From: a virus
Length of the DNA stretch: 64,000 nt
Virus record (IMG/VR): IMGVR_UViG_3300036861_000275
Span: 1 to 64,000 of that record
Reading direction: 5' to 3' (one strand)
The position numbers were made by a program, and so were the translations under genes. Shown piece after piece: positions 3,506 through 55,580 of the stretch (position 1 is the first letter of the stretch; each line of letters begins with the position of its first letter). The notes under the pieces are model-generated. The model made no database searches. It was given only the letters and a program-made list of their open reading frames with translations, and was not told the origin of the DNA.

Positions 3506-3567
3506 GTGACACCTCCGTCATGGAGGGACCCTTGTATCAGAGCAGTGGTCATATTATCCAGTATCTG

Positions 3568-4335
3568 TCACATCGCCGGTAGTGAAAAGTTGGGCGTCCA
3601 CGGAACCCATACACCTCTGTGCCTATCCAGCTTGATGGGTCCGCTCGCCTGCTCATCGGCGAATACCCAAGTCCGACCGGAGTTGTCGAGTCCGATCAGG
3701 GCAGTGAAACCAGGCCCCTGATACTGGACCATGTGTACCAGGCGCCGCACCGGGAATGGCGAAGTCTTGTCGTCGATTCGGCTGAGCCTCTCCAGGGCGA
3801 ATCTGACGTTCTGGATGCTCATCGCAAGGCCGCTAGGATTTACCGTTGAGCCTAGATCGCTTCCGATGCTCGCCACGGCATTCTTCAGGGTGTCCACGGA
3901 ACTTTTCAGCCCATCAGTGACCAGGCCGATATTGATAGACCCCCTTAGCAGATCAATAGTTGTCTCGATTTGATCCGCCTCGGCTTGGAGCATGGCGGTC
4001 TGGGCCGTAATGGCTGCCGTAGTTGCCGCTACCGCTGCCGTTTGGGCATTAGTGGCATTAGTCTGTGTCGCCAAAGCCGCTTCGACCGCTGCCGTCTGGG
4101 CCTGGACAGCGGCCGTCTGATTTGTGATTGCCACAGTCTGGGCCGTAGTAGCTGCCGTGAGGGCGTCAATGGCGTCTCTGACCTCGGTGACGAGTCCAGA
4201 CGCCAATATGGCCATCTGAGCCGTCAGGTTGTCGACCCCAGTTTTGATACCGGGGATCGAGACGTTATCTGATGCTACAGGAACTACGTCTCCGATTTTG
4301 AGAGCGAATGTTGCTATCGGATCGCCTGCGGCCAT
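3568..4335 (-). CDS. Ala/Thr-rich heptad-repeat coiled-coil protein
   Basis: TAATTAQ/TVAITNQ/TAAVQAQ-type repeats. Confidence 0.75.
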   Translation of the reverse strand: MAAGDPIATFALKIGDVVPVASDNVSIPGIKTGVDNLTAQMAILASGLVTEVRDAIDALTAATTAQTVAITNQTAAVQAQTAAVEAALATQTNATNAQTAAVAATTAAITAQTAMLQAEADQIETTIDLLRGSINIGLVTDGLKSSVDTLKNAVASIGSDLGSTVNPSGLAMSIQNVRFALERLSRIDDKTSPFPVRRLVHMVQYQGPGFTALIGLDNSGRTWVFADEQASGPIKLDRHRGVWVPWTPNFSLPAM

Positions 4336-4357
4336 AAGTCGCCCCCCTTATATCCCC

Positions 4358-4642
4358 TCAGTTCGTGCTTCCTACGCTGCCTGGGTTCTCGGGATTGGTG
4401 ACGTCGATCATGCGGACAGGTGCATCCAAGTGCTCTAGCACGCTGAGCAGGGCTTTACGTATCTCGGCTCTAACAGCACCAGCCTCGTGCAGCATCCCGC
4501 CAGCTATCGGTAGATAGACGCCTTCCTGCTCGAAAATGAGACAGATTGGCCTGGCTCCGTTTTTACGGGCAGACTCGCTTCCGAGTAGCGCCGCCCATTG
4601 GAGTACCTGAAGGTGGAAGAACACGGTGTTCTCGCTGCTCAT
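4358..4642 (-). CDS. Hypothetical protein
   Basis: ATGA-coupled to the methyltransferase stop; MSSENTVFF... Confidence 0.6.
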   Translation of the reverse strand: MSSENTVFFHLQVLQWAALLGSESARKNGARPICLIFEQEGVYLPIAGGMLHEAGAVRAEIRKALLSVLEHLDAPVRMIDVTNPENPGSVGSTN

Positions 4643-6090
4643 ATCAGTTTCCTTTGAACGCCTTGTTGCCGCCGCTCTGCCATAGCCACGTAGGATGGAT
4701 TCAGTTCGATGAGGATGGCTCTCCTGCCGTGCTGAGCCGCGACAACGCCGACGGTCCCGGAGCCACCGAATGGGTCTAGCACAGTGCCGTCTTTCGGACA
4801 GCCAGCTAGCAGGCACGGCTCGACCAGCTTCTTCGGGAATGTGGCGAAGTGGGCCTCCGGGAATGCCTCCGTCGGGATGGTCCAGACTGTGCGGCGGTTG
4901 CGGGTGGCTCGAGGTTGCCACGGCTCGTCCGATCCGCGTCCGCCCCGGCTGAGCTGCTCCGGGCGTTTGTAGCCGTTGCCGCTGGGATGATCCGAGACGG
5001 CCGGTTCCTCGATGGCCTCATGGTCATAGTAGTATGCGGTATGACTTGGACGCGATATACTAAACTCATGACTAACGAGGTCGTACTTGCATACTTGGCC
5101 GGAGTTGTGGATAGCGACGGCAGTATCTCCATAGCGGTGGACACTTGGAGGCAGCGCGTACTTGGCCGCACCCCCTCCTATCAGGAGATGATCGCCGTCG
5201 GCCAGTGCGACACCCAGGCGGTGCAACTCCTCCAAGAAACGTTTGGGGGCAGCGTCCACCAAACGAAAGCGCGCGGCGAGAAGCGCCGCCCTATGTCCTA
5301 CTGGCAGGTCTCCAACAGAGTAGCCGTCAACGTCGCCAGATCCCTGTTGCCGTTCCTGAGAATTAAGAAGCGACAGGCCGAGATACTTCTTCGACTCCGG
5401 CGCATCAAGGATCGCGGAAGAAAATGCAATACAGAGATCACGCGCCCCCATGTCCGCACTCTTCAGGCGAGCGTTATCGCCGAGATGGAAGGACTCGTCC
5501 GAGAGGTCCGAGAGATGAACGCCTCGCGTTACCCACGAGCCCTTAGCAAATAGGAAGAGGTACTCATGTGACTTCGTTGGCCGATCCTTGATGCTCTCTG
5601 GCATCGCGTTCGGTTTTTCCCATATAATATCAGAGCGTAGGTACCAGCCGTCGGCCCGGAGCGCGAAAGCTACAGACCACGGAATCCCAACCAAGTCTTT
5701 TGGCTTCAAGCCATCAGTCAGAGACCTGTAGCCGCCCTTAAACATCCTCGCCGTCCTGGCTGCGCCGCCGTCTTTGCTCTTAGTCCCACCAGTCATGCCG
5801 CCTGTGTTAGCGTATGAGTCCCCTAGATTAAGCCAGAGGGTCCCATCATTCCGTAACACCCGGCGCACGGCCCGGAATACCTCGACCAGATGCTTGACGT
5901 AATCTTCTGGCGTCGGCTCGAGGCCTAGCGAACCGATCCAGCCATTCCCCCAGTATTGCGACTCAGTGCCATAGTCGCGGAGTCCCCAGTATGGCGGGCT
6001 TGTAATAACACAGTGCACGCTCTCATTCGGCAATTCTATCAGCCGATTGAGCACGTGTCCCTGGAGAATCCTGGTGGTCGGCTCGGTCAC
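4639..6090 (-). CDS. DNA amino-methyltransferase (N4-C/N6-A, beta class) with ~166-codon insertion
   Basis: ITSPPY motif IV, DIIWEKPN, HEYLFLFAK, HFATFP, VLDPFGGSGT motif I; foreign segment between FAKG and YYYD. Confidence 0.92.
   Translation of the reverse strand: MTEPTTRILQGHVLNRLIELPNESVHCVITSPPYWGLRDYGTESQYWGNGWIGSLGLEPTPEDYVKHLVEVFRAVRRVLRNDGTLWLNLGDSYANTGGMTGGTKSKDGGAARTARMFKGGYRSLTDGLKPKDLVGIPWSVAFALRADGWYLRSDIIWEKPNAMPESIKDRPTKSHEYLFLFAKGSWVTRGVHLSDLSDESFHLGDNARLKSADMGARDLCIAFSSAILDAPESKKYLGLSLLNSQERQQGSGDVDGYSVGDLPVGHRAALLAARFRLVDAAPKRFLEELHRLGVALADGDHLLIGGGAAKYALPPSVHRYGDTAVAIHNSGQVCKYDLVSHEFSISRPSHTAYYYDHEAIEEPAVSDHPSGNGYKRPEQLSRGGRGSDEPWQPRATRNRRTVWTIPTEAFPEAHFATFPKKLVEPCLLAGCPKDGTVLDPFGGSGTVGVVAAQHGRRAILIELNPSYVAMAERRQQGVQRKLI
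5056..5067 (+). promoter_or_regulatory. Candidate -10 box for a leaderless LAGLIDADG transcript
   Basis: TATACT 6 nt before the ATG; no Shine-Dalgarno sequence. Confidence 0.45.
5068..5553 (+). CDS. Single-motif LAGLIDADG homing endonuclease nested antisense in the methyltransferase
   Basis: LAYLAGVVDSDGSISI motif; LQETFGG, YWQVS, LLPFLRIKKRQA signature segments. Confidence 0.9.
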   Translation: MTNEVVLAYLAGVVDSDGSISIAVDTWRQRVLGRTPSYQEMIAVGQCDTQAVQLLQETFGGSVHQTKARGEKRRPMSYWQVSNRVAVNVARSLLPFLRIKKRQAEILLRLRRIKDRGRKCNTEITRPHVRTLQASVIAEMEGLVREVREMNASRYPRALSK

Positions 6091-6359
6091 GGCTCACCGC
6101 CGTCAGCCACCCTGGCCAGGACATCGCCGTGACACTTCCGGGGCGAGCAGTAGCAGAGCAGAACCTTCCCACGTAGCTCGGATCTCGCCGCCTCGACCAG
6201 GTCGGGCCGAACCCGGAGCATCTTGATGTATTGATTAATCGAGCCGTTCCGCCCATATCTGTAGATGTGGAACGGGTTCCCCCACTTCGACGGATTCCCG
6301 ATGTAGACCTCGTCCGGTGTTTTCAGCCTGTCTTGAAAGTTAATCACCGTCGTAGTCAC
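6087..6359 (-). CDS. DUF4326 family protein
   Basis: VYIGNPSKWGNPF...ELRGKVLLCYCSPRKCHGDVL. Confidence 0.85.
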   Translation of the reverse strand: MTTTVINFQDRLKTPDEVYIGNPSKWGNPFHIYRYGRNGSINQYIKMLRVRPDLVEAARSELRGKVLLCYCSPRKCHGDVLARVADGGEP

Positions 6360-7138
6360 ACCGCCCCCTTCACTCGACACACACAGTACCAGCCTGCGCC
6401 CTCAGTTGGATACAGCTTTGCGAGCCTCACTCGCAGCGCCGTCAACTTCCGGTACAGAGTGACAGAGAGTCCACCGATGATGTCGATGAGCCCGACGAGC
6501 GGCGTGTCGTACACGCTTGGATGCAGACTCTCAATCTCGAAGCCGGCCGCCTCGAGCTCGCCACGTAACTCCGGGAGCGTGTATTCGATCTTATGGTCCG
6601 GATCGGAGAACGACGGTAGGCCAGCCGCCCGTAGCCGGCGCTTCCACGATGTCCCGCTGTTCGGAACTGACAAGAGCAGGCGTCCTCCTGGCTTCAGAGC
6701 CCGGCGGCACATTCCCAGCACCTTTTGCCGTCCATGGACGTGCTCTAGTAGGTCGTGGCACAAGATTACATCGAAGTACAAGCCTCCCCAGTCTTGTCTC
6801 TGCCATGACTTCGTGGCGTCCCCGATGTAGAAGACAGCCATTACGCGCCGAGCAGTCCGCTCCCGCCTAGCTGTCTGCACGCTCGCTTCGTCCATATCGA
6901 ACCCTGTGACCGCTTGGCACAGACTAGCCACCCGTAGAGAATGTTGCCCATTCCCACAACCGACGTCGAGCAGGCGGGCGCCCGGCCGGATATGCTCCAT
7001 GTACCAGTAGTGAGAGTCGTCGAGCAGGTGCTTCGGATGGACGCTCTCAGAGCTCTTGCCAGTCCATTTGACCAGCCGGATGGCCAGCCCCTTGGCCTTG
7101 ACGTTACCCCAGAGCGCGACACGCAGTAGTATCTTCAC
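6356..7138 (-). CDS. Class I SAM-dependent methyltransferase (small-molecule/glycan type)
   Basis: LLDVGCGNG, FDVILCHDLLEHV, LKPGGRLLLSVPN. Confidence 0.88.
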   Translation of the reverse strand: MKILLRVALWGNVKAKGLAIRLVKWTGKSSESVHPKHLLDDSHYWYMEHIRPGARLLDVGCGNGQHSLRVASLCQAVTGFDMDEASVQTARRERTARRVMAVFYIGDATKSWQRQDWGGLYFDVILCHDLLEHVHGRQKVLGMCRRALKPGGRLLLSVPNSGTSWKRRLRAAGLPSFSDPDHKIEYTLPELRGELEAAGFEIESLHPSVYDTPLVGLIDIIGGLSVTLYRKLTALRVRLAKLYPTEGAGWYCVCRVKGAV

Positions 7139-11246: not shown

Positions 11247-11456
11247 ATGGAAACTTGGACGGTCAAAAGGAATGACGCTGGTGTCTGGCTGTATTACGCC
11301 GGCCGTATAGGTAGAGTCCCGACATGGACTGCCAGCCAAGAGGCGGCCATGCTCTTCGAAAGCCGTCTTCACGCCGAGTCCATGGCCGTCGCGCACAGCG
11401 GTTGTGTATCGTCTGCATCTCACAATCCAAAAGCCATACAAGAGAGGGAGAACTAG
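11247..11456 (+). CDS. Hypothetical early protein
   Basis: First ORF after promoter and RBS. Confidence 0.6.
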   Translation: METWTVKRNDAGVWLYYAGRIGRVPTWTASQEAAMLFESRLHAESMAVAHSGCVSSASHNPKAIQEREN

Positions 11457-11458
11457 TC

Positions 11459-12463
11459 ATGGCACACAATCTGAGCTACTCCAACGGCAAGTACGAATTC
11501 GCTTACACCGGAGAGTCCCCGTGGCATGGGCTCGGGCAGCGCCTCGCCGCGGAAGCGACGAAGGACGACATCGTCAAGGCTGCCGGCCTGGAATGGGTAG
11601 TCACCCCCGAACCCATCTTCCTGGCTGACGGTACGCCCGTCCCAACCCACGTGGCCAATCGCCGCTCGGACAATCACGAGATCCTCGGCGTCGTGTCGAA
11701 TGACTATCGCCTGGTCCAGAACGGCGAAGCCTTCGACTTCATCGACGCTCTGGCCGACAGCGCCGGCGCGAAGTACCATACGGCCGGTTCGATCCGCCAT
11801 GGCCGGCAGGTCTTCGCCTGCGCCAAGTTGCCATCTTCGCTGGTGGTCGTACCTAACGACGTCGTCGACAAGTATCTTCTCCTCGTCAATTCTCACGACG
11901 GCACCACCGGCTTTCACCTGCGCTGGACCACCGTCCGCGTGGTCTGTAACAACACTCTGACGGCCGCTCTCCGCGGCGCCGCCAGCTACCAGTACACCGT
12001 CCACCATCGCGGCGACCTGGCCGACCAGCTCCGCGTAGCCCGTCAGGCTCTCGGCGTGGCTGACCGATTCTTCGACGTGGCCGGTATCGCCTACAAGGCC
12101 CTCGCGGCCAGGCAAATCAACGCGATGGAGCTCGACACTTTCGTCTCGTCCTTCCTTCCGCTACCGAAGGTGAGCATCAGCCAGGATCTCACCATCCAGG
12201 AAGACGACCAGAACAACCGCGCCAAGGTGCTCGAGGCCCGCACCGCGGTCCGCGTGCTCTTCGAGCGCGGCGAAGGTCAGACCATCCCCGGCGTGGCTGG
12301 TACCGCTTGGGCGGCCTACAACGCCGCCACGGAGTACATCGACCGCGTCCGGACTTCCCGTAACGACGGCACGATGCGCCGCGGGGCAGCCGCCGCGGCC
12401 GTCTTCGGCATCGGTCAGGATCTCCGCGACCGGGCCATGACGTCGGCTCTCGCCCTGGTCTAA
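11459..12463 (+). CDS. DUF932 family phage/plasmid protein
   Basis: MAHNL...PWHGLG...AGLEWVV...YRLVQNGEAF...YLLLVNSHDG...VRVVCNNTL...GTAWAAYNAATEYID. Confidence 0.92.
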   Translation: MAHNLSYSNGKYEFAYTGESPWHGLGQRLAAEATKDDIVKAAGLEWVVTPEPIFLADGTPVPTHVANRRSDNHEILGVVSNDYRLVQNGEAFDFIDALADSAGAKYHTAGSIRHGRQVFACAKLPSSLVVVPNDVVDKYLLLVNSHDGTTGFHLRWTTVRVVCNNTLTAALRGAASYQYTVHHRGDLADQLRVARQALGVADRFFDVAGIAYKALAARQINAMELDTFVSSFLPLPKVSISQDLTIQEDDQNNRAKVLEARTAVRVLFERGEGQTIPGVAGTAWAAYNAATEYIDRVRTSRNDGTMRRGAAAAAVFGIGQDLRDRAMTSALALV

Positions 12464-20409: not shown

Positions 20410-21593
20410 GGTAGCCCCCGATAAACCCTTAATAACCGTTCCGCTATTAAGACTTTAGAGAATCTCTGTAAGACGTTCTGTCTGGCTTCGGGTATATTCC
20501 AGGGCCACTTACGCTGGATGAGTTGCAGCGCAATTTCCGGAATACACTCAGGACTTGTCAAGGTACCGGTACCCTTGGTGATGATCTCTGGCAGGCCGCC
20601 CCTATCAGTTGCCAGGATGTACCTCTCTTGTGCCTGCGCCTCGAGGGCGGTCCGCGGCAGCGTATCGCATTGAAGTGGCGGGATCATGACAAACGTCGAT
20701 GCCCGCATCCATCGCAACACCTCGGTGCGTGGTAACGGCCCGACCGAGAGGACGTTGGGATGTGTCTTGTCCTTTTGCCCTACATGTACGAATGCGGCTT
20801 GCTTATGCCCTTGAGTCGCCGCCATCGTGAACAGTCCCCATCCCTTACCAGGGCTCGGCTTGCCGACAAAGAGCACGACAGGACGGAACCCTAATTCGTG
20901 TCGGTCCCGCAGGTTTATAGCCTCCGCTAGGAAAACGGGCGGCTCTGGGTTGACGGGTGACGGTATAACAACACTTGTTATATTCCGCTGAGAGTAGACC
21001 TGCCGCAATGCCTCGGATGGGAAGACCACCGCGTATGCGTGCTGTAGTTGATCTAGGATGCCGCGTCGCCAACGATAGCCTAGAGCGCGTTGAACGTAGG
21101 CTCGATGCCCGCCATACTGGCGCACAAATTCCGGGATGCACTCCGTCATCAGCTTGCCCTGACCGCAGTCGCTCGGAATGGTGATCCGGGAGAGCAGGCA
21201 GACCGCAATCGGACAAAGCAGGCCCACGTCACGCAGTGTGACAATCCGCCTAGTTCTCCAGTCTTTGACCTGGCAGAGCGCCCCGAAGGAACGCCAGTCT
21301 TGAGCATGTACAACCTCAGTCGGCATCATGACGTCCGCGTAGGCGGCCATCACGTCCTTCCACCCGCCAGACTTCCAGTAGTCTCGTTCCCTGTCCGAGG
21401 ACGGCGCAGGGAACCTGATCACATCGACGCCGCCCACAGATTCCTCGTCTTGGGTTTCTTCTATCCACTTAGGGGTGAGCACCTGAACCTGATGGCCCAG
21501 CATCGCAAGGGTTTCCGCCTCGAGGCGGACACTCTCAGCAGAGCCACCCTGTTCCGAGGGAGGATAGTGTTCGCATAACATCAAGACTCTCAT
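20400..21593 (-). CDS. Glycosyltransferase family 4
   Basis: MRVLMLCEHYPP..GGSAE, FVGKPSPGKG, DTLPRTALEA, ATDRGGLPEII. Confidence 0.88.
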   Translation of the reverse strand: MRVLMLCEHYPPSEQGGSAESVRLEAETLAMLGHQVQVLTPKWIEETQDEESVGGVDVIRFPAPSSDRERDYWKSGGWKDVMAAYADVMMPTEVVHAQDWRSFGALCQVKDWRTRRIVTLRDVGLLCPIAVCLLSRITIPSDCGQGKLMTECIPEFVRQYGGHRAYVQRALGYRWRRGILDQLQHAYAVVFPSEALRQVYSQRNITSVVIPSPVNPEPPVFLAEAINLRDRHELGFRPVVLFVGKPSPGKGWGLFTMAATQGHKQAAFVHVGQKDKTHPNVLSVGPLPRTEVLRWMRASTFVMIPPLQCDTLPRTALEAQAQERYILATDRGGLPEIITKGTGTLTSPECIPEIALQLIQRKWPWNIPEARQNVLQRFSKVLIAERLLRVYRGLPCA

Positions 21594-43399: not shown

Positions 43400-43620
43400 C
43401 AGTCGCACTCCCTTTGTGCCACTTCGTCACCGCGCCATGTGCCGCGGCAGATAAGACGCAACGTCTTCTGATTACTCTCGTCGTGTCTCTTCAGGGCAGT
43501 CGTCAACGGGCTCGCTAGGACACCGTCAAAGGCTCCAAGTATGTATAGACACAAGAAAGTAGGTACTCCGATCACCCCTACGGCTTTAACCCACCACGGC
43601 ATCCGATCTGTAGGGTTCAT
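43399..43620 (-). CDS. Small membrane protein (holin/antiholin-like)
   Basis: WWVKAVGVIGVPTFLCLYIL TM segment; directly upstream of lysozyme. Confidence 0.6.
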   Translation of the reverse strand: MNPTDRMPWWVKAVGVIGVPTFLCLYILGAFDGVLASPLTTALKRHDESNQKTLRLICRGTWRGDEVAQRECD

Positions 43621-46600
43621 CGGCCGTGCTCTTCCATGATCATCCTCTTCACCGGACCCATTTTTTTCATCTTCATCTCTTTCCATAGCTCAGGATCTTG
43701 TGCTCGGACACGGCTATTGGCCACCCCTCGGACTTCGCGTAGCTTTTTAGCTAGCGCCTCGCGTTGTTCAGCGTCAGTCAGGGATTGATAGGCCGACGAT
43801 GACACGTATGGGTCGATGCGCTCCTCGACTAGCGGACCCATCTCCTCTTTGACCATGCGGTCCCATTCCGGGATTCCGATTGTAGGTAAGATCTCTCGCG
43901 ACTCAAAACCTAGCCGGTCTAGTTCTCTCTCGGCATCGTTTTTGGGTTGCGTCACGGTGGCGCCCAGCATGCCGGCTATCGGCATCCGGCGCTTTGACAC
44001 CTCCCCGGTGGTCGGCGCTATTCTCTCCGGCAACGTTTCGGCGGCGAATGGTGTCGTCGCTTTGATGGGTCCTAGGAACGGCTCCAGGGAAGGGTCTCTT
44101 TGGGTTGCGAACTTATCGGAAAAGATGGCCATGGTCTCTTGGATGTTTTTCAGGGGCACTAACAGGCCGGCGACGGCCTCTCCGAAGAGTTTGCCGGTCA
44201 GCCTACCCTTCATACCCTCCGTGTCAAGATCCCCCAAACCCTTGAAGAGCTGGTCGACCAGCGCCATACCCACGCCAGCCCTCATGTTGACAGACAGAAT
44301 CCCCCGTAGTATCGACCATGAGTCTATGTTGTACAGCGTGCCACGCCTGGCTCGGACCATCAGGTCGCCCACGAATAGGTATGCCGCGAACGGGTTGTAG
44401 GGAGTGATGTCGATATTGTGGCCGCCGACGTTGACCTCATACCACTTATCACCCGCCCAGTCGCTATCCCGCAGCGCATACGAGAGACCCAGCAACATCG
44501 CGCCCATCAATGAGTGGCTGATAGCTCGAAAGTTGCCCTTGGCGAATTCAGCGCGCTCGGCCTTAGACAGCAGTGACAGGAAGCCGAGCGGGTTGAACTT
44601 GCCATAAAACTTCAGAGTGTTCAGCATGAACCGCGGGAACGGTATCACGAAACTAAGCGGGAGGAACCTGTTTACCAGATTCATAAAAAGCCACGGTACG
44701 CTGCCATGTTCAGGGCTCTCGGCGAACGTCAGCTCGAGTGACTTCTGAATGGCTGCCTTCACATCGTCTAGATGGATTTCATCGGCCCGGTTCCCTTTGA
44801 TGAGTGTCTCTAGATCCTTCCCGCGCAACGTAGTGAGTCGATCTAGCTCGGCATGGAGGATGGCGTTACGGAAAGCATTCTCCTGCCAGTTGTTCACGAT
44901 GTTTAGCAGGCTGACGCCCTGATCCATACCGTCTAGGATACGATCCAGCCTAGCCTGACTTCCTCCGGCTGCTTTCTTGTATAATTCGTTGCTGCCGTAA
45001 GTGCTAAAGGCGCGTGAGAATTCCTTTGGGAATGCTGCCAATATCGCCCGGATCTCCGCCTCGTTCTTGGATGGTCCCTGGAGCGCGGTCCCGCGTTGGC
45101 CAGGTCGGAACCACATGTCGATGAGCTGGTGCATCGCGGCCGAAGGGTCTGCCATCCGACTAGGATCAATCTTCCCGCCGAGACCTTTCACGCCGGCCTG
45201 AATCATTCTCTGTAGCCCAACGTCGGCTATATCCAGACCGACTCTCACGTTCTGGCCCCAGAAGTTATGAGTACCGGTCGCCCATCTAGTCGTCAAGAGA
45301 CCACGGCGGATGTTATTCAGCCGATTCCACCAACGCCGCTGGATTTCTTGCTCGCGCATCACCTCTTTGAGCCCTTGTTTCTCTGCGACCTCGTCTAGGG
45401 CTGCCCTTATTTGCGGATCGGCTCGCTTGATAGCTTGAGCCAGACGTCCTAATGCACCAAGACGTCTAGCCGCATCTCTGACGGCATCCCGGAAGAGAGC
45501 GTCAGCAAATTCGGTGTCAGTGAGTCCGAACTTAGCCCGGACACTCTGGAGATGATCGCTCGTCAACTTGCCGTCTTCCATAAGGTTCCGGATCTGATCC
45601 GAGATTAGCATGTCTGGGTCACGAGCTACACCGGCCGCAGTAAATAGATCCTTGGCTACGGCAAGCACTTGACTGTGCTCCCCTAGAGCCAGTATAGGAT
45701 CGACCACATTGACGTCCGCTTGCGACAGAGCGCCCGGCTGAGCGCCTTGCATGTTCTGTGGATTCGCCACCAGCGGGTCAGGTGACGTTTCGCCCGGCGC
45801 CGGCAAAGACTTCTGCACTGCCTGACTAAGCTCCTGCTGCCGCGCCAAGGTACGTTCACGGATGCGCCGGCCGACTTCCTCTTGGATCTGGCGTCGGCGA
45901 TCTTCGGTAGGTTCCCGGGCCATCAGCCCGGTCTCTCCAGGTCTGGCCTCAGCAGCTCTTGCAGCGGGAAGAACGCCGGTGAGTCGTTCCCGTTCCACGG
46001 CATATCCAGTAACCTTTTCCCCGTACTCCAGGCCACGTTCTACGTTTGTCCGCACAGCCTCGCTGCCGGCTGCTCCCGTCACCGGGGAGCGCCACACGTG
46101 GTCTGTGATATTGCCGTTCTTAATCAATGTACGCGAAATCTGATCTGTGCCAGCCCACAGGGAGTCTGTGTAGACCAAGGCTCTCATAGCACCGAAACCG
46201 CGCTTTTGATCCTGAAGCCATTGCCTGAATTCAGGGCCGGAGTTGTATTCAGCTAGAGGTAAGGTCTGAATGGCCCGGACCTTATTGCGCGCATCGGAAT
46301 AAACAAGCACAATCTCTTGATGCCCATGCACGATCTGCCCGGCAACAGCAGCCATCGCCTGAGGGGTCCCGACGTCAGCATTGAGCAGCTTATGCTCGAC
46401 TAGCGGCGTTAGAAGCGTATCCGGGCCTGTGCCAGGGAGTTTATGGATGGTTGCCATCTCAGGAGTCCTGGCACCGCTAGAGATCACGGCATACGTGCCT
46501 GAATCTATGACTACGTGGCCCTGAAAACCGGGCACTTCACCGCTGATCGTGGTAGTCATGTTCACGTCGTCCTGAGATACGGCAGGGTTGCCTGATGGAT

Positions 46601-49600
46601 GGTTGTGCATCATCCAATACCCATCAGCCCCCAGATCCTTCATCGTAGCCTTCATCCTGGCCATGCCTTCAGCGTTTGTGCCGTTTCCCTCGAAAGCTAG
46701 AGTGACGGCCGCCAGCCTTGACGAGACAGGAGTCCAACCTACTAACCGGCCCTGTTTCGTGTACAGTATCCGGAATGTCTCGTACCTAGGATCACGTAGT
46801 ACCTGGGCCATCTCGGCGAGCTGGCGATGTCCCTCTATCTTGCGCCCTATCCAATCCAGTTTGCCGGTCTGGACAAGATCGGCGCGGATGCCGAGGCCCA
46901 GTACCTTAACGCCTTTCGGCCAGATAGCTGAGGATGGGGCCATGGACTTGAAACTATCCTCCGGGGTCGCCTGGACGGCTTGTAGATCCCAGAGGGCATC
47001 CATCGTTAGCTGGTTCGTGCGCGCCGAGGCGTCTTTGCGTTTTTTGTAATCCTGTACGCGCTCAAATAGCGCCTGACCTCGGTCCAGCACGCTCTCTCGC
47101 ATGGCCGTGGTGACTTCGAGGGAATGCACCGGATGGCCTTTGCTGATCGGGTCTATCAGGTTGTCCATCCACTGACCGTTCCCACGGTCTAGGGCCGATT
47201 GAGCCTCTCTCCTAGTCGCATACTGACCGACAACCGTACCCGAACCTGTAAGAGTAACCCAAGGCTTGGCGGCCTTTTCGGCATCGCTGACAGGCCCAAG
47301 GAAAACCAAGTTGGGCCGGTCCACCTCGACCATCGAGTACTTGGCGCCCCACTTCTTCCCGTACTTGACGGCAAAGTCCTTGAGGATCTTGTCGTAGAAG
47401 CCGCGCATGCCTTCGCCGCCAACCTCTAGCCCGTCGCCAGCTATGTATCCCTGGGCTTCGCCTACAATGCGGGCGGCTATCGGTTTCGGTAATACGTCAT
47501 CGACCTGGTGTCCGACAAAACGTTCAGCGCCTCTGTTGGCTGTGCTAGCCAGCACTTTCCCATCCGAGCCGACCAGAAACTTAATGTCGCCGCCGCCGCC
47601 CTGTTTGCCCAAGACAACCATTGGCTGATGCTCGCCTCGGAGCGTGTTGGCCCACGTCACGGAATTGATCACGTGAGAGATTGAATAGCGCTCATTCTGC
47701 TGGGCGCCGGTGGTCCAGGATACCCTGTCGTAGCCGTTCTCTGCCGCCCAGCGCAACACTCGCTTGAAGGCGAGCTCGTGCCAGGTCTTCGCGAATGGAG
47801 CGTCAGGGACTCCTGTTTTCCCGACGTCTTGCAGCTTGTGAATCATATCTTCCTTCTCTACGAGGCTCTTATGCCTACTCCTGATCTCATCTGGTTCCGC
47901 CTGCTCAGCGCCACGTCGCCCGATTAGAGTCTCATACTCTGCACGCTCTTGATCGAACGATTGCTGAAGGGCCTTAATCTGGGCGATTTCGGGTATCGTC
48001 AGCTCGCGACGGTAACCCTGCTTGCGGCCTTTCTGGTGCCAATCGGACTGGAGCTCCTCGATATGCAGCGTCCTACGACCTTCCGGATCGGTTCTGTCAT
48101 TGAATCGTGTGTGCACTAGGATATTTGGTGCATCCCAGTGCGCCGACTCGAACACTACCGGTTTGCGTTTAGAGACTGTAGGTGCAGGTGATTCGTAGAA
48201 GCGGGTTCCATCCTTGACCATGTCGGCTACGTGACCAGCGTGACCCCTAAAAAACTCAAACACATTTCCATTACGATTAAGAGCTAAAACCTCGCCGCCA
48301 TTATTCACTCTACTGGCAGCGTCCTCGGCAGAAAGCCGAGCGCCTGTTTTAATAAACCCGTTGGGTCCCTGAGTCTCGGCCTGGATAATAGCGTCCATCC
48401 GATCCCGAGCTAGGTACGAGCCTATCGGGCGGCCCTTGTCATCAAACACGTCGAATACGTCCGCTCCCTGCATTTTGTTATGCCATGTAATACCCGCCGA
48501 TACCGCTTCAGCAGGAAGACCCCTGATCGGCTGCTCGTCGCTGACGGAGACAGCCTGCTCGTACAGCATCATCCACTTATAGAACTCGTTCAGGTCCGAT
48601 CTGATCTGGCCCTGGGCGGATTCCTGGACACCCGGGATCGGAATGCTGTATCGAATACTTCTGGCCTCATTGGTGTGGTACCCGAGCAGCAGATTAGCCT
48701 TTAACAGCTGCGGTACCCCGGCGGCGTTCTGGTCTAGCGTGATAGCAGCCGTGGCTTTAGCCTGGTCGGCCCGCTTCAGAATTGCTTCCTTGATACGCCT
48801 GTCGTCCGTCGGCTGATTTGCGTGCGTCAATTCCACCCAGCGCTCGAACTGGTCTTGTGTCATCTCTTCTAGTGCTTTGCGATTAAGCCCATGCAATTCG
48901 GCCGACTCGTTTGGATTGAGAGGGCTCACGTTACCTAGAGTCAGGAGAAGTTCACGGCCGTTCTTGGCCCCTGGGAGGACGTAAGCTGCATACTTCAATC
49001 CTTGCCCTGCATTGGAAATATCCCTAGCGGCTTGATTCAGGTCACGACTCAGGTCGGCCACTCTATCCCTGGTCTCGAAAAATCTATCCGTCAAAGCTGC
49101 CAACCGATCTTCGACGGCCTGAATCGGCGGGCTGGGGACACCATTAATCAACATGGAGTCAGTGCCAGTGTAGAGAGCTGCCCGAAGATTTTTTAGCCCC
49201 CTATGAACCATCTGATTATCAGCACCGGCGCTTAAATCATCCATGATCTGATCGGCGCGATAGCCGCTCACTAAAGGATCAACGGCTCGCCATATATCCC
49301 CTTTGGCTGAGACGTACTCACGATGAGCCGCTGAATGAGCCGCCTCTATGGTCTCTTTCTTCGCCAGCAATTCTGGCGGTGCCATTCCATAGACCACCTC
49401 GTCGACCTTGACGGCGTTAGCATCCAGGAAGTTCACCACGTCCTGCTTGGTGACCGGCCCTGTCTTGTCGCGTAGCCAGTCATCCAGGCCGCTCCACTTA
49501 ACTTCGTCCTGTTTGACCTCGTTCGACCTGAGAATGGCCCGAAGCTGGTCTACGCTTGCCCGCGTGGGCAGTTTGGTCTCTATCAAATCCTTGAGGCCAG

Positions 49601-52600
49601 AGTAAAATACTGGACCAGGCTCTCGCCTTACTCCATACTCTTGAGCCGCCTCGGCTAGCATTGAATGCTGGGCCGAATCGTAGCTGCCACGATTTCCGAG
49701 CGCGCTCTTAATCTGTCCCGGGTTGAATGCTATCCAGACACGATGCTCCGGACTACCGGTTCTCTGGCCGCCGATATGAGTGATGCCGTCGTAGCCGGCG
49801 TTACGCAAACTCTGATTAGCTTGGCCGGTGGAGAACTCGTTGCCGTTAGCGCGCCAAGCGTCCGTCAACGCATCCCAGACTTGAGCCCCTCTGGCGTACG
49901 GCTTGTCCATACCCTCACGGAGCATGGTAAGGGCCTCTGTGATCGTGAATTCTGGGAACATGCTCTCGTAAAATTCTTGCTGGACATATCCAGGCAGGGA
50001 ATCGACAATGTCGCTCACCTGTCGGCCGGTCATTAGCGTATCATCGGCCTGGAATGGATTCTCTAGGCGGGCATACAGAGCGTAGACCCCTCCGACGCCG
50101 CGCTCCCGCTCTAGGATCTTCTGAATGACACGCATGTTGTAGGGCTGACCGCTAAGTTCGTCGAGCCACGCGTACTGTCCAGTTTCCAGAAAGCGCTGCA
50201 CGTTGTTATCGACCCGTTGCTGCTCCCCCTGGGAGAGATAGCCGCGCTCGATCATCCCGCGAGACCAATCCCTACTAGACTTCAGCTCGCTCACAACCCG
50301 ATTGCGCTCATCTTGATCCGCGACTCCAACGTCCAACCCTTTATGGGCGTAGCCTCGGCGCTGGAATGTCGGTGTATGGATAGATGCTGCCCATTGCCTC
50401 TCCTCAATCGGTCCTTGACCTACACTCCATACGAATCCTTTTCGTCCAGGGGCGGCCATGGCTTCTTCCTGGGTCGGGAAGTACTTGACCTCGGTATCTT
50501 CTTCCACGACCCCGCCGGCAATGTTGGGCGATTCTGTCATGTAGAACCCGGGACCGTAGAGTGCCCCTGGATCAAATTTCTCAGGATTCACTTCCTCGAA
50601 GCCGGGGTTACCTGTGCCGTGGTAGACAACGCGTGGATCGCCGTTCTCGTTTCGGACATGGCTATTCCCGAACCACTGCCGGAAATTATCGGCGTGACTC
50701 CCGCTGCGGTTGTAGGGCGAGATAGGCTCGAAGAGTAGCATTTGGTTCTGCTTCTCTTCGAGACTGCCGCGGCCGAGTGGGGTTTGCTCGAATCCCTTTT
50801 GCTGCACCCCCGCCTTAAGCGGGGTCGCTGGCATCTGGCGGGGCGCTACTCCTGGGACGAGGGCTTGCTCTCCGATGGGGGTTTGTTCGTATCTGAGGCC
50901 CGCTTTGCCTTCCAGTGAGCCGATATCTTCTCGACCATTTCCTTGTGTCTCGGCAGAAGTGCCAAGTCGTCCTCGTGTAGGAAATGTTCCCCCGGTTTCG
51001 GTCTGGGTCGGTCGTTGCCCTCTGGGGACATCGTTGTTCCAGGCTTCATAGCTGTCCACCCTTTCCGTATCGTTCTTGAGAGCATCATATGTCGCAGCCG
51101 GCCTGGCGTCAACCTCTAACACATAAGCCGGATCTACGAACTGAGTAGGTTCGCCCCTCTGGAGGCGATTCATGTAGCGGTCGACGGCTCTTTGAGCCGC
51201 CTTCTCCTCAGGTAATGCCATATAAGCCAAGTGCACTCGGTAGCCGTTCATCTTTGCCTTATTCAGGACTTGCGTGATACGGTCCGGGTTTTTGCCGGTC
51301 AACACATACACAATATTGTCGCCTTGCGACACGGCATGATCGTAGACATCGTCGGCCACCGCCGATGACTCCATATGAACGGCGCCGTTGAATCTGCCGT
51401 TCTCTGATTCCGGGATCATCAGTTTAACGATGTCGCTATCAATAAGAAGAGCCGACAGCCGATCCTGAAGAGGCTCCGCGAGATGATCGGTCTTACCAGA
51501 AGCCGGACCACCTAGAACTACCGCTAGGATCTTGTCCTTGCCACGGGTCCCTTCGTCGGTATTGGCCAGCGCTCCGCGCTCCCACATTCGGACTGTCTGA
51601 CCGTCACCGTAGAGTTGGTCTGCCCAGCCATCTCGCATCTGCCGCCGCTCGATCGTATTGATTTCGTCGGTAGGCTCTTTCGCTGCCTGCTCTTGGCGGG
51701 CGGCTACAATCTCAGGGGTATCGTATGGGGTGGATACCTCCAAGGTCTCTGGATTACCGGCGAACTCACCACCAACAGCCTTGCGGAGCGCTTCACCCTC
51801 TGGCGTTGTAGACGTCCAGATTACCGGCTCATCGCCCTTTTGCAATTCCTCGACAAGGGACTTCCCGACCCCCTGCCTACGGGCATCCGGCTCGACATGG
51901 ATGTACTGGATATATGTCTTGCCGCGGTACGACGCCCAGTCTATGTGCCCGACCTGGGTATCGCCGCGCATGGCGCGTAGAGTTCCATCGGTCTGACCAT
52001 GACTGACCCCTAGGACGTCGTTCTGGAAACTTATCTCTGGCAGTTGGCGGCCGCCGGCCTCCCGCACCACGGTCGGTTGCTCCACCTTGACAGCTTCCAT
52101 GACTTGGCGATGGATAGCGAGCAGCCTGTCTTGGCCTGAATTGATGTCTCGCTTCCAATTTATGTCCTTTGGCCTGTTTTTGTTATGCTTTTCCACCGCG
52201 GCCCGCATTTCGGCCTTAGCGGACGCTAGCGCTTCGCTGGGGTCCATACCCTTCCGAAGGCCACGAACGTACTCACCTGGAGCCAGAGAACGGAGCATGT
52301 CGTCGAAGTGGGCCGCCCCGACAGGAATAGTGCCAAATGGACCCTGGTTCTTCCTGGCTACATTCTCTAGGCGTTCCGCTTCCGTATCCAGTTTGCGCAT
52401 AACCGCAAAGAGCGCTTCCCTGGGCTTCTCTTCCAGGGCGCTATAGTATGGCTTTGGCTTCTCTACCTCGGCCGGAACGGCTTCGGCAGGTGCTTCTCTG
52501 CGAGCCTGCGCTTCTCGGCCAACATGTTCTGGACCTGCTGGCGGACCTTGGACCTGGCTGCGAGGTTCTTCTGGATTCTCTTTACCACCTCTTTCCTGGG

Positions 52601-55556: not shown

Positions 55557-55580
55557 GATGGTCTCTATTGTACCCTGGTA

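Follow-up and report, generated by a model that had tools for sequence, protein, structure and literature searches.

The nested genes and their identity

The stretch of viral DNA analysed here, referred to as the window, comprises 64,000 nucleotides (nt) and corresponds to positions 1 to 64,000 of the IMG/VR record IMGVR_UViG_3300036861_000275, a 92-kb viral contig from a soil metagenome that is estimated to be 80% complete. On its minus strand lies a DNA methyltransferase (methylase) gene whose open reading frame (ORF) continues without interruption across an insertion of 168 codons, and the opposite strand of that insertion encodes a LAGLIDADG homing endonuclease (Table 1). An earlier reading of the same DNA, made from the sequence alone and hereafter called the sequence-only reading, had already described a LAGLIDADG protein on the strand opposite to the methylase, and the profile match and structure model given below agree with it.

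Table 1. Features of the methylase locus and of the endonuclease gene nested in it (positions in the window).
Feature	Position	Strand	Details
Whole DNA methyltransferase ORF	4639–6090	minus	483 amino acids (aa); no interruption, runs across the insertion
Methylase part N-terminal to the insertion	5539–6090	minus	Residues 1–184; motif IV and HEYLFLFAKG strand
Methylase motif IV, SPPY	5989–6000	minus	Residues 31–34
Methylase part C-terminal to the insertion	4639–5034	minus	Residues 353–483 and stop; YYYD and motif I
Methylase motif I, FGGSG	4756–4770	minus	Residues 441–445
Insertion	5035–5538		168 codons, S185–A352 of the methylase frame; promoter and endonuclease ORF (plus strand)
Family −35 box position	5033–5038	plus	TTGCAA in relatives, 17-nt spacer; degenerate TATGCG in the window
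−10 box, TATACT	5056–5061	plus	6 nt before the ATG
LAGLIDADG homing endonuclease gene	5068–5553	plus	161 aa and TAG, single-motif I-CreI type; ATG at 5068, TAG at 5551–5553
Endonuclease motif, LAYLAGVVDSDG	5086–5121	plus	Residues 7–18
Endonuclease 3′ end	5539–5553	plus	Codons A-L-S-K and TAG, antisense of host G184-K-A-F-L180

The methylase ORF matches PF01555 (N6_N4_Mtase) with an E-value of 1.9e-42, and the match is split into two stretches with the insert between them. Motif IV precedes motif I, and the structure model of the core resembles M.BceJIV, CcrM, M.PvuII and M.RsrI (TMt 0.6–0.74). With this motif order, the PF01555 match and a Rossmann-type core, the protein is a beta-class N4/N6 DNA methyltransferase.

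The product of the plus-strand ORF starts MTNEVVLAYLAGVVDSDG and matches phrog_5046 over its full length (E 7.5e-16), a family that carries the label 'HNH endonuclease', which we judge to be a mislabel. Its Pfam LAGLIDADG_1 score of 19.5 bits is slightly under the cut-off of 23.1. Across 40 aligned endonuclease sequences A11, G12, D15, D17 and G18 are invariant, D15 and D17 being residues of the catalytic motif, and so are Q46 and K100. An AlphaFold model built with this 40-sequence alignment reached a mean predicted local distance difference test (pLDDT) score of 92.4 and contains the alpha-beta-beta-alpha-beta-beta-alpha fold. The top Foldseek matches of the model are I-CreI, I-MsoI and I-CvuI (probability 1.0, TM 0.68–0.71), three single-motif LAGLIDADG homing endonucleases that act as homodimers and belong to group I introns. 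The window protein shares with these three its size, the fold and a single LAGLIDADG motif with the invariant acidic residue, and differs from them in its sequence (20–24% identity) and in its location, since theirs are found in self-splicing introns, on the intron sense strand. Homologues of the window nuclease are called as separate proteins. Judged by its sequence and predicted structure, the plus-strand ORF is a real LAGLIDADG nuclease of the I-CreI type.

Insertion site and codon register

Relatives of the element were sought in three DNA collections by means of an endonuclease profile, and so irrespective of the state of the methylase frame. The nested set comprises 41 loci with 36 distinct sequences, the window included, at 42%–79% protein identity. 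All close relatives except two lie antisense and in register between homologues of both methylase halves. The limits of the insertion were derived from insertion-free homologues and from empty alleles at the DNA level, for which the empty-site DNA was drawn from 19 loci, and they are accurate to about two codons.

The insertion falls between K183/G184 and Y353. The gap between the conserved Lys and YYYD measures 168–171 codons in 26 elements and three codons in empty alleles, and the insertion-free homologues, about 310 aa long, read HEYxFLL(S/T)KS-x-(R/K)-YYYD. In these alignments the insertion site is a highly conserved tight turn (HEYxFLxxK, three residues, YYYD). The sequence-only reading had placed an insert of about 500 bp (~5041–5538) between FLFAKG and AYYYD, which the alignment with insertion-free homologues bears out with limits of ~5035–5538; it had also taken the site for a variable region, and the conserved turn contradicts this.

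Both ORFs begin at coordinates that are 1 mod 3, and each endonuclease codon is the exact reverse complement of one methylase codon. The endonuclease ORF and the ~33 nt upstream of it, which hold the promoter, take up essentially all of the insert, bar a few codons. At its other end the ORF continues into host sequence, and its TAG is the antisense of the host CTA for the conserved Leu180; the last endonuclease codons and the stop are thus taken from the methylase (L180–G184), as had been noticed from the sequence. The same is seen in relatives. Among the 26 elements at this site (site 1), 22 have the endonuclease stop within host sequence before the conserved Lys, 21 of them two to three codons before it and one 17 codons before it, and the borrowed stops in relatives fall on a host Leu or Ser codon.

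Codon avoidance in the endonuclease gene

Owing to the exact register, stops in the host frame can arise solely from the endonuclease codons TTA, CTA and TCA. None of the 593 Leu and 273 Ser codons (866 in total) in the 36 nested elements is one of these three. The host flanks use the avoided codons at 11.1% (Leu) and 11.4% (Ser), so that ~97 would be expected in the 36 elements, and the probability of finding none in a given element is ~0.07. The sequence-only reading had named frequent methylase-frame stops in homologous insertions as the observation that would speak against it; no such stop occurs in any of the 36 elements.

The window is informative on its own. Its methylase frame is open throughout and its endonuclease gene uses no TTA, CTA or TCA, as had been read from the sequence. 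The other genes of this phage encode 24.8% of their Leu residues by TTA or CTA and 10.6% of their Ser residues by TCA; at these rates an endonuclease gene with 14 Leu and 11 Ser codons would be expected to contain 4.6 antisense stops (P = 0.005 for none). That the endonuclease gene has no CTA at all is the more striking because this phage uses the codon unusually often (220 of the 1206 Leu codons in 30 long ORFs). Among windows of 161 codons in the other genes of the phage, just 2.2% are open in the in-register antisense frame. The caution that antisense frames are often open in GC-rich DNA thus fails as an explanation.

Copies outside a methylase gene do carry the avoided codons. A close relative that is free-standing between terminase genes (L009) has two, another without methylase flanks (L139) has five, and non-nested relatives of matched GC content have 0.88 per 100 codons.

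These data bear on the possibility that the methylase is dead and that its open frame reflects chance composition or a filter acting on arrival, with no continuing selection. Stretches of 120–235 codons elsewhere in the window are likewise open in the in-register antisense frame without any Pfam match, and 48 of the 122 non-nested relatives have no such stop in the matched stretch, as this explanation would allow. It is contradicted by the complete absence of avoided codons in 36 elements whose third codon positions differ at 37%–57% of sites: the codons have turned over many times, and a filter acting on arrival only cannot explain that absence. The value of P = 0.005 for the window alone and the intact catalytic motifs and strong purifying selection in the flanks (see below) also speak against it, and we regard it as the least probable of the explanations weighed here.

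Selection on the two frames

The closest nested pairs show 0.37, 0.19 and 0.10 differences per site at the third, first and second position of endonuclease codons, and their translations are more alike in the endonuclease frame (protein identity 0.79) than in the methylase frame (0.60). This substitution pattern indicates that the insert evolves as an endonuclease gene, with the methylase frame constrained just to lack stops. In the 60 methylase codons directly before the insert the corresponding values at methylase positions 3, 1 and 2 are 0.45, 0.15 and 0.10, and SPPY and FxGxG are kept in the invaded methylases. By these sequence comparisons, the flanking methylase codons are under purifying selection and the invaded methylases are maintained as proteins. 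A comparison of selection on both strands, which the sequence-only reading had put forward as a check, therefore finds the endonuclease frame selected in the insert and the methylase frame selected in the flanks.

Promoter and expression signals

The TATACT box that had been assigned to the endonuclease in the sequence-only reading has a counterpart in 33 of 35 elements, where TAnnnT lies 5–10 nt before the start codon (chance 2.7%), at exactly 6 nt in 23 of them. In 17 elements a TTGnnn box, mostly TTGCAA, lies 16–18 nt further upstream and abuts the host YYYD codons; the antisense of TTGCA accounts for a conserved Cys that the methylase frame shows two residues ahead of YYYD. There is no space for a Shine-Dalgarno sequence before the start codon, and only one element (L140) has a leader, with AGGAGG. 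This layout suggests that the endonuclease mRNA is leaderless or nearly so.

A terminator-like hairpin with a T-run is present at 5589–5606 on the plus strand, 36 nt past the endonuclease stop and within conserved methylase coding sequence. One such hairpin in the region is about the chance rate.

Intein and intron alternatives

A selfish gene inside a coding sequence might be removed by splicing of the protein or of the RNA, and both were considered. The insert could be an intein with an antisense-encoded homing endonuclease that is translated and then spliced out of the protein. Antisense LAGLIDADG genes inside inteins are a documented architecture (Gosselin et al., 2025, 10.1101/2025.01.02.630785, citing Gorbalenya 1998 and Gogarten 2002), and the window nuclease is 29% identical, at 98% coverage, to an ORF that lies antisense and in register within the 'MuF + intein' gene that Gordonia phages Sitar and Lennon carry. 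There is no space for splicing blocks, however, since the nuclease ORF is antisense to 161 of the 168 insert codons (four of its own codons lie in host sequence) and the rest is promoter. Pfam searches with E-values up to 1 gave no Hint or intein signal in the insert of the window or in those of two relatives (L106 and L117), while the same search recovered Hint_2 in Sitar MuF (3.6e-5) and Intein_splicing in L115 (1.6e-5) as positive controls. Neither a conserved Cys, Ser or Thr as first residue nor a His-Asn with a following nucleophile at the C-terminal junction is present. The window junctions read KG|S/Q-W... and ...T-A|YYYD (SHTA|YYYD), and across the family only the Cys codon, the antisense of the −35 TTGCA, is conserved. 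The absence of intein termini reported in the sequence-only reading is thereby borne out. In addition, the methylase-frame sequence of the insert evolves as non-coding save for the absence of stops, and its structure model is of low confidence and partly helical, with no beta-rich Hint fold. We consider an intein very improbable.

The alternative at the RNA level is a group I or group II intron with an antisense endonuclease gene that is spliced from the methylase mRNA. Group I introns that carry a homing endonuclease gene are common in phages, and the methylase of Gordonia phage Ailee is annotated as a joined coding sequence around a distant sense-strand relative of the window nuclease. Against this, no Rfam intron family was found in 4000–7000 at E-values up to 10, and this permissive search returned two chance-level matches and nothing else. 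With only ~33 nt of the insert outside the nuclease ORF, there is no spare sequence for a ribozyme core, as had been argued from the sequence for a group I intron. RNA splicing would also make a stop-free frame of a multiple of three needless, yet it is kept in all 36 elements. An intron seems to us every bit as improbable as an intein.

Two loci in the collections do combine this nuclease family with inteins. The methylase gene at L115:89–2158 (minus strand) contains a canonical intein (Intein_splicing and LAGLIDADG_3, ending ...THN|SKPNPMPES) in addition to an antisense LAGLIDADG cassette at site 1, so that both strategies occur in one gene. In L001:956–4066 (Sitar gene 16), annotated as a MuF-like minor capsid protein '+ intein', a homologue of the window nuclease lies antisense in register alongside an N-terminal Hint block, providing a cultured-phage example of the intein-borne form.

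Distribution and probable mobility

On a tree of the methylase flanks with 136 rows the site-1 insertion is patchy. Its distribution needs 18 changes, of which at least seven are forced by well-supported branches; the count is approximate since L109, P0021 and P0054 are mislabelled by the motif rule. The methylase of the window is nearest to empty alleles (64% identity to P0017, with P0050 as sister). Across 22 invaded genes, identity between endonucleases shows no correlation with that between flanks (Mantel r 0.096, not significant), which together with the patchiness speaks indirectly for homing. More remote relatives of the nuclease frequently stand alone and adjoin methylase genes of the same family, in divergent or co-oriented arrangement, which fits a nuclease family whose target is this methylase gene. 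The best matches in cultured phages have ≤35% identity, and no close nested relative was found in cultured phages, plasmid-free genomes or GTDB genomes.

One sub-lineage (L011, L056, L135, L136, L140, P0049 and P0063) is inserted about 15 codons downstream, after YFFDxxAVRE. Its gap between −10 box and ATG is 7 nt, and in L140 it is replaced by the leader described above. The L011 methylase seems to have an in-frame stop near its N-terminus.

Three methylase genes that hold the antisense LAGLIDADG element contain a second antisense ORF at another site, which encodes an HNH endonuclease (Pfam HNH, with NUMOD3 in L121); these ORFs lie at L122:878–1420, L110:1729–2289 and L121:3160–3765, all on the plus strand. 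The three share one antisense register, in which their codons are out of step with those of the methylase; here too the methylase frame is open, and it is read as a Ser/Pro/Arg-rich peptide. In L020 (~3524–4023) the methylase downstream of a free-standing nuclease relative shows a gap of about 500 bp at residue ~150, which may be a further insertion site.

Neighbouring genes and rejected candidates

The window methylase starts with GTG, which overlaps the stop of an upstream DUF4326 gene, and that gene follows a gene for a class I S-adenosylmethionine (SAM) methyltransferase; all three are on the minus strand. In the protein collection the methylase is represented by an entry (P0001) of just 385 aa with an internal Met start and without SPPY, so that automatic gene calling truncates it, and the nuclease ORF is absent among the called proteins.

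Other antisense open spans in the window, at 11456–12160, at 21084–21575 and inside the ORF 43620–55580, gave no Pfam match and were taken as chance. The last of these ORFs is a giant open frame of ~3,990 codons on the minus strand that holds several chance antisense open spans of 120–207 codons, the three largest of which were searched in Pfam with no match. A further pair of loci (L014/L142) seemed to be nested because of a 2001-nt open antisense frame, and is actually a free-standing nuclease gene upstream of a methylase gene.

Proposed mode of persistence

We read the locus as a mobile homing endonuclease cassette that is nested backwards in an orphan methylase gene of a phage and that spares its host by translation and not by splicing, and we give this reading a probability of roughly three in four. 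The cassette of ~500 bp carries its own sigma-70-type promoter, a start codon probably without a leader and the I-CreI-like ORF of 161 codons, which reads into host sequence and ends on the antisense of a conserved host Leu codon. In-register antisense is the one alternative frame in which host-frame stops correspond to whole nuclease codons. Since TTA, CTA and TCA all have synonyms, selection can hold the methylase frame open without changing the nuclease protein. The methylase would then be made as a single, active chain with a poorly ordered excursion of 168 residues between the HEYxFLxxK strand and YYYD, this mirror-image peptide projecting from a turn that joins two adjacent strands. Presumably a homodimer, as is I-CreI, the nuclease would cut the conserved empty allele in a co-infecting phage, and repair would copy the cassette in.

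Several points weigh against this reading. The activity of a methylase that bears 168 additional residues in a conserved turn is presumed from the conservation of its sequence, and in the AlphaFold model of the invaded methylase, in which the core has pLDDT values of 80–95, the insert is of low confidence (24–66, with some helices). A generic promoter scan did not call the TATACT promoter and the −35 box of the window is degenerate, so that this copy may be weakly expressed. The sequencing runs listed with the window sequence are two soil-metagenome DNA sets, maybe its source, with no RNA run among them. Patchiness could stem from repeated loss in addition to gain. The search patterns require an intact endonuclease motif, so that decayed copies, which might bear methylase-frame stops, would be missed, and the 36 elements are related and not fully independent, though their third codon positions are near saturation.

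Two further possibilities concern the reason for which the frame is kept open. It may serve mainly to keep ribosomes moving and thereby to avoid polarity in the operon through early termination of transcription, or domestication may have turned the nuclease into a partner of the methylase or a regulator of it; on this view the insert would be no tolerated passenger of an active homing element. The nuclease gene is antisense to a whole minus-strand operon and its mRNA would be fully complementary to that of the methylase, both of which would suit such roles. Polarity alone does not need the part after the insert to be always in the correct methylase frame and conserved as protein, however, and a patchy distribution that is not fixed, the uncoupled histories of nuclease and host, and the invariant catalytic residues of the nuclease also speak against such roles. 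We hold this pair of explanations to be unlikely, while granting them more than an intein, an intron or a dead methylase.

Taken together, the observations lead us to favour, with less assurance than the reading of the locus itself, a broader view in which homing endonuclease genes have a third lifestyle inside coding genes that is independent of splicing, with an in-register antisense layout, synonymous removal of stops and a mirror-image peptide tolerated as a loop. This lifestyle would be widespread and actively mobile in environmental phage methylases, and it would be common to unrelated nucleases, since further sites in these methylase genes hold HNH genes in antisense. Such intein-less elements may be ancestral to inteins with antisense endonucleases or descend from them.

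Comparison with known systems

The ShiLan domain and the Pacc40 insertion are hidden HNH endonucleases in DNA methylases of actinobacteriophages (Gosselin et al., 2023, PMC9957025; Arsenault et al., 2025, PMC11855218). The sequence-only reading had likened the element to the ShiLan insertion, with a different nuclease, and the parallel is real. Common to these systems and the window are a PF01555 methylase host, a conserved site, patchy occurrence, a stop-free host frame, no detectable intein or intron, a nuclease in a non-host frame and an in-frame peptide predicted to form a poorly ordered excursion. The actinophage insertions encode an HNH enzyme in frame +3 of the host strand, for which a GTG start has been proposed but no promoter described, whereas the nuclease here is a LAGLIDADG enzyme on the opposite strand, in register, with −35 and −10 boxes of its own that are conserved in the family and a probably leaderless ATG. 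Theirs are also cultured phages, in contrast to the environmental phage contigs (soil, groundwater and other) of the family described here. The antisense arrangement is not mentioned in either ShiLan paper (PMC9957025, PMC11855218). Also known from actinophage methylases is the Taj_79 group, a lone in-frame LAGLIDADG insertion (PMC9957025). It resembles the window in having a LAGLIDADG nuclease in a PF01555 methylase with no detectable intein or intron, and differs in that the methylase chain itself includes the nuclease, read in the host frame at another site and seemingly inherited vertically, whereas the window has it as an antisense gene of its own.

Inteins with an antisense LAGLIDADG gene have been described in Synechocystis DnaX, in a Chloroflexus SpoVR-like protein and in minor capsid proteins of actinophages (Gosselin et al., 2025, 10.1101/2025.01.02.630785). 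They share with the window the nuclease family, the in-register antisense layout and a host frame without stops over the nuclease gene. They keep Hint blocks on both sides and protein splicing, while here the splicing domain is absent. The closest cultured-phage relatives of the window nuclease are antisense LAGLIDADG genes of this kind, in inteins of Gordonia phage minor capsid genes, a connection absent from the sequence-only reading.

A likeness also exists to the 'intronless homing' of the T4 Seg and Mob endonucleases, in that distant relatives of the nuclease are free-standing beside methylase genes and one close relative (L009) lies between terminase genes; the window copy differs in sitting inside the coding sequence itself without splitting the gene. 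In the literature searched, no intein- or intron-free methylase with a nested antisense LAGLIDADG gene is described. From its sequence features, the element is best read as an antisense LAGLIDADG variant of the ShiLan-type hidden-nuclease insertions.

Significance

Homing endonucleases are thought to persist in essential or useful genes solely by means of self-splicing introns or inteins. The work on ShiLan (2023–2025) suggested a third route, translation as a harmless insertion, on the basis of a handful of mycobacteriophages and with the mode of expression unexplained (PMC9957025; PMC11855218). The element described here strengthens this idea by putting numbers on the selection (none of 866 codons where ~97 would be expected), adds a clear expression module with a conserved promoter and a predicted leaderless start, and gives a mechanistic reason why an in-register antisense frame suits such a lifestyle. 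It also bears on practice: gene callers mis-annotate loci of this kind, and a site of a beta-class methylase that seems to accept 168 extra residues offers protein engineers a natural guide. Finally, it links the literature on hidden nucleases to that on inteins with antisense endonucleases, and this nuclease family may show moves between free-standing, nested and intein-borne states.

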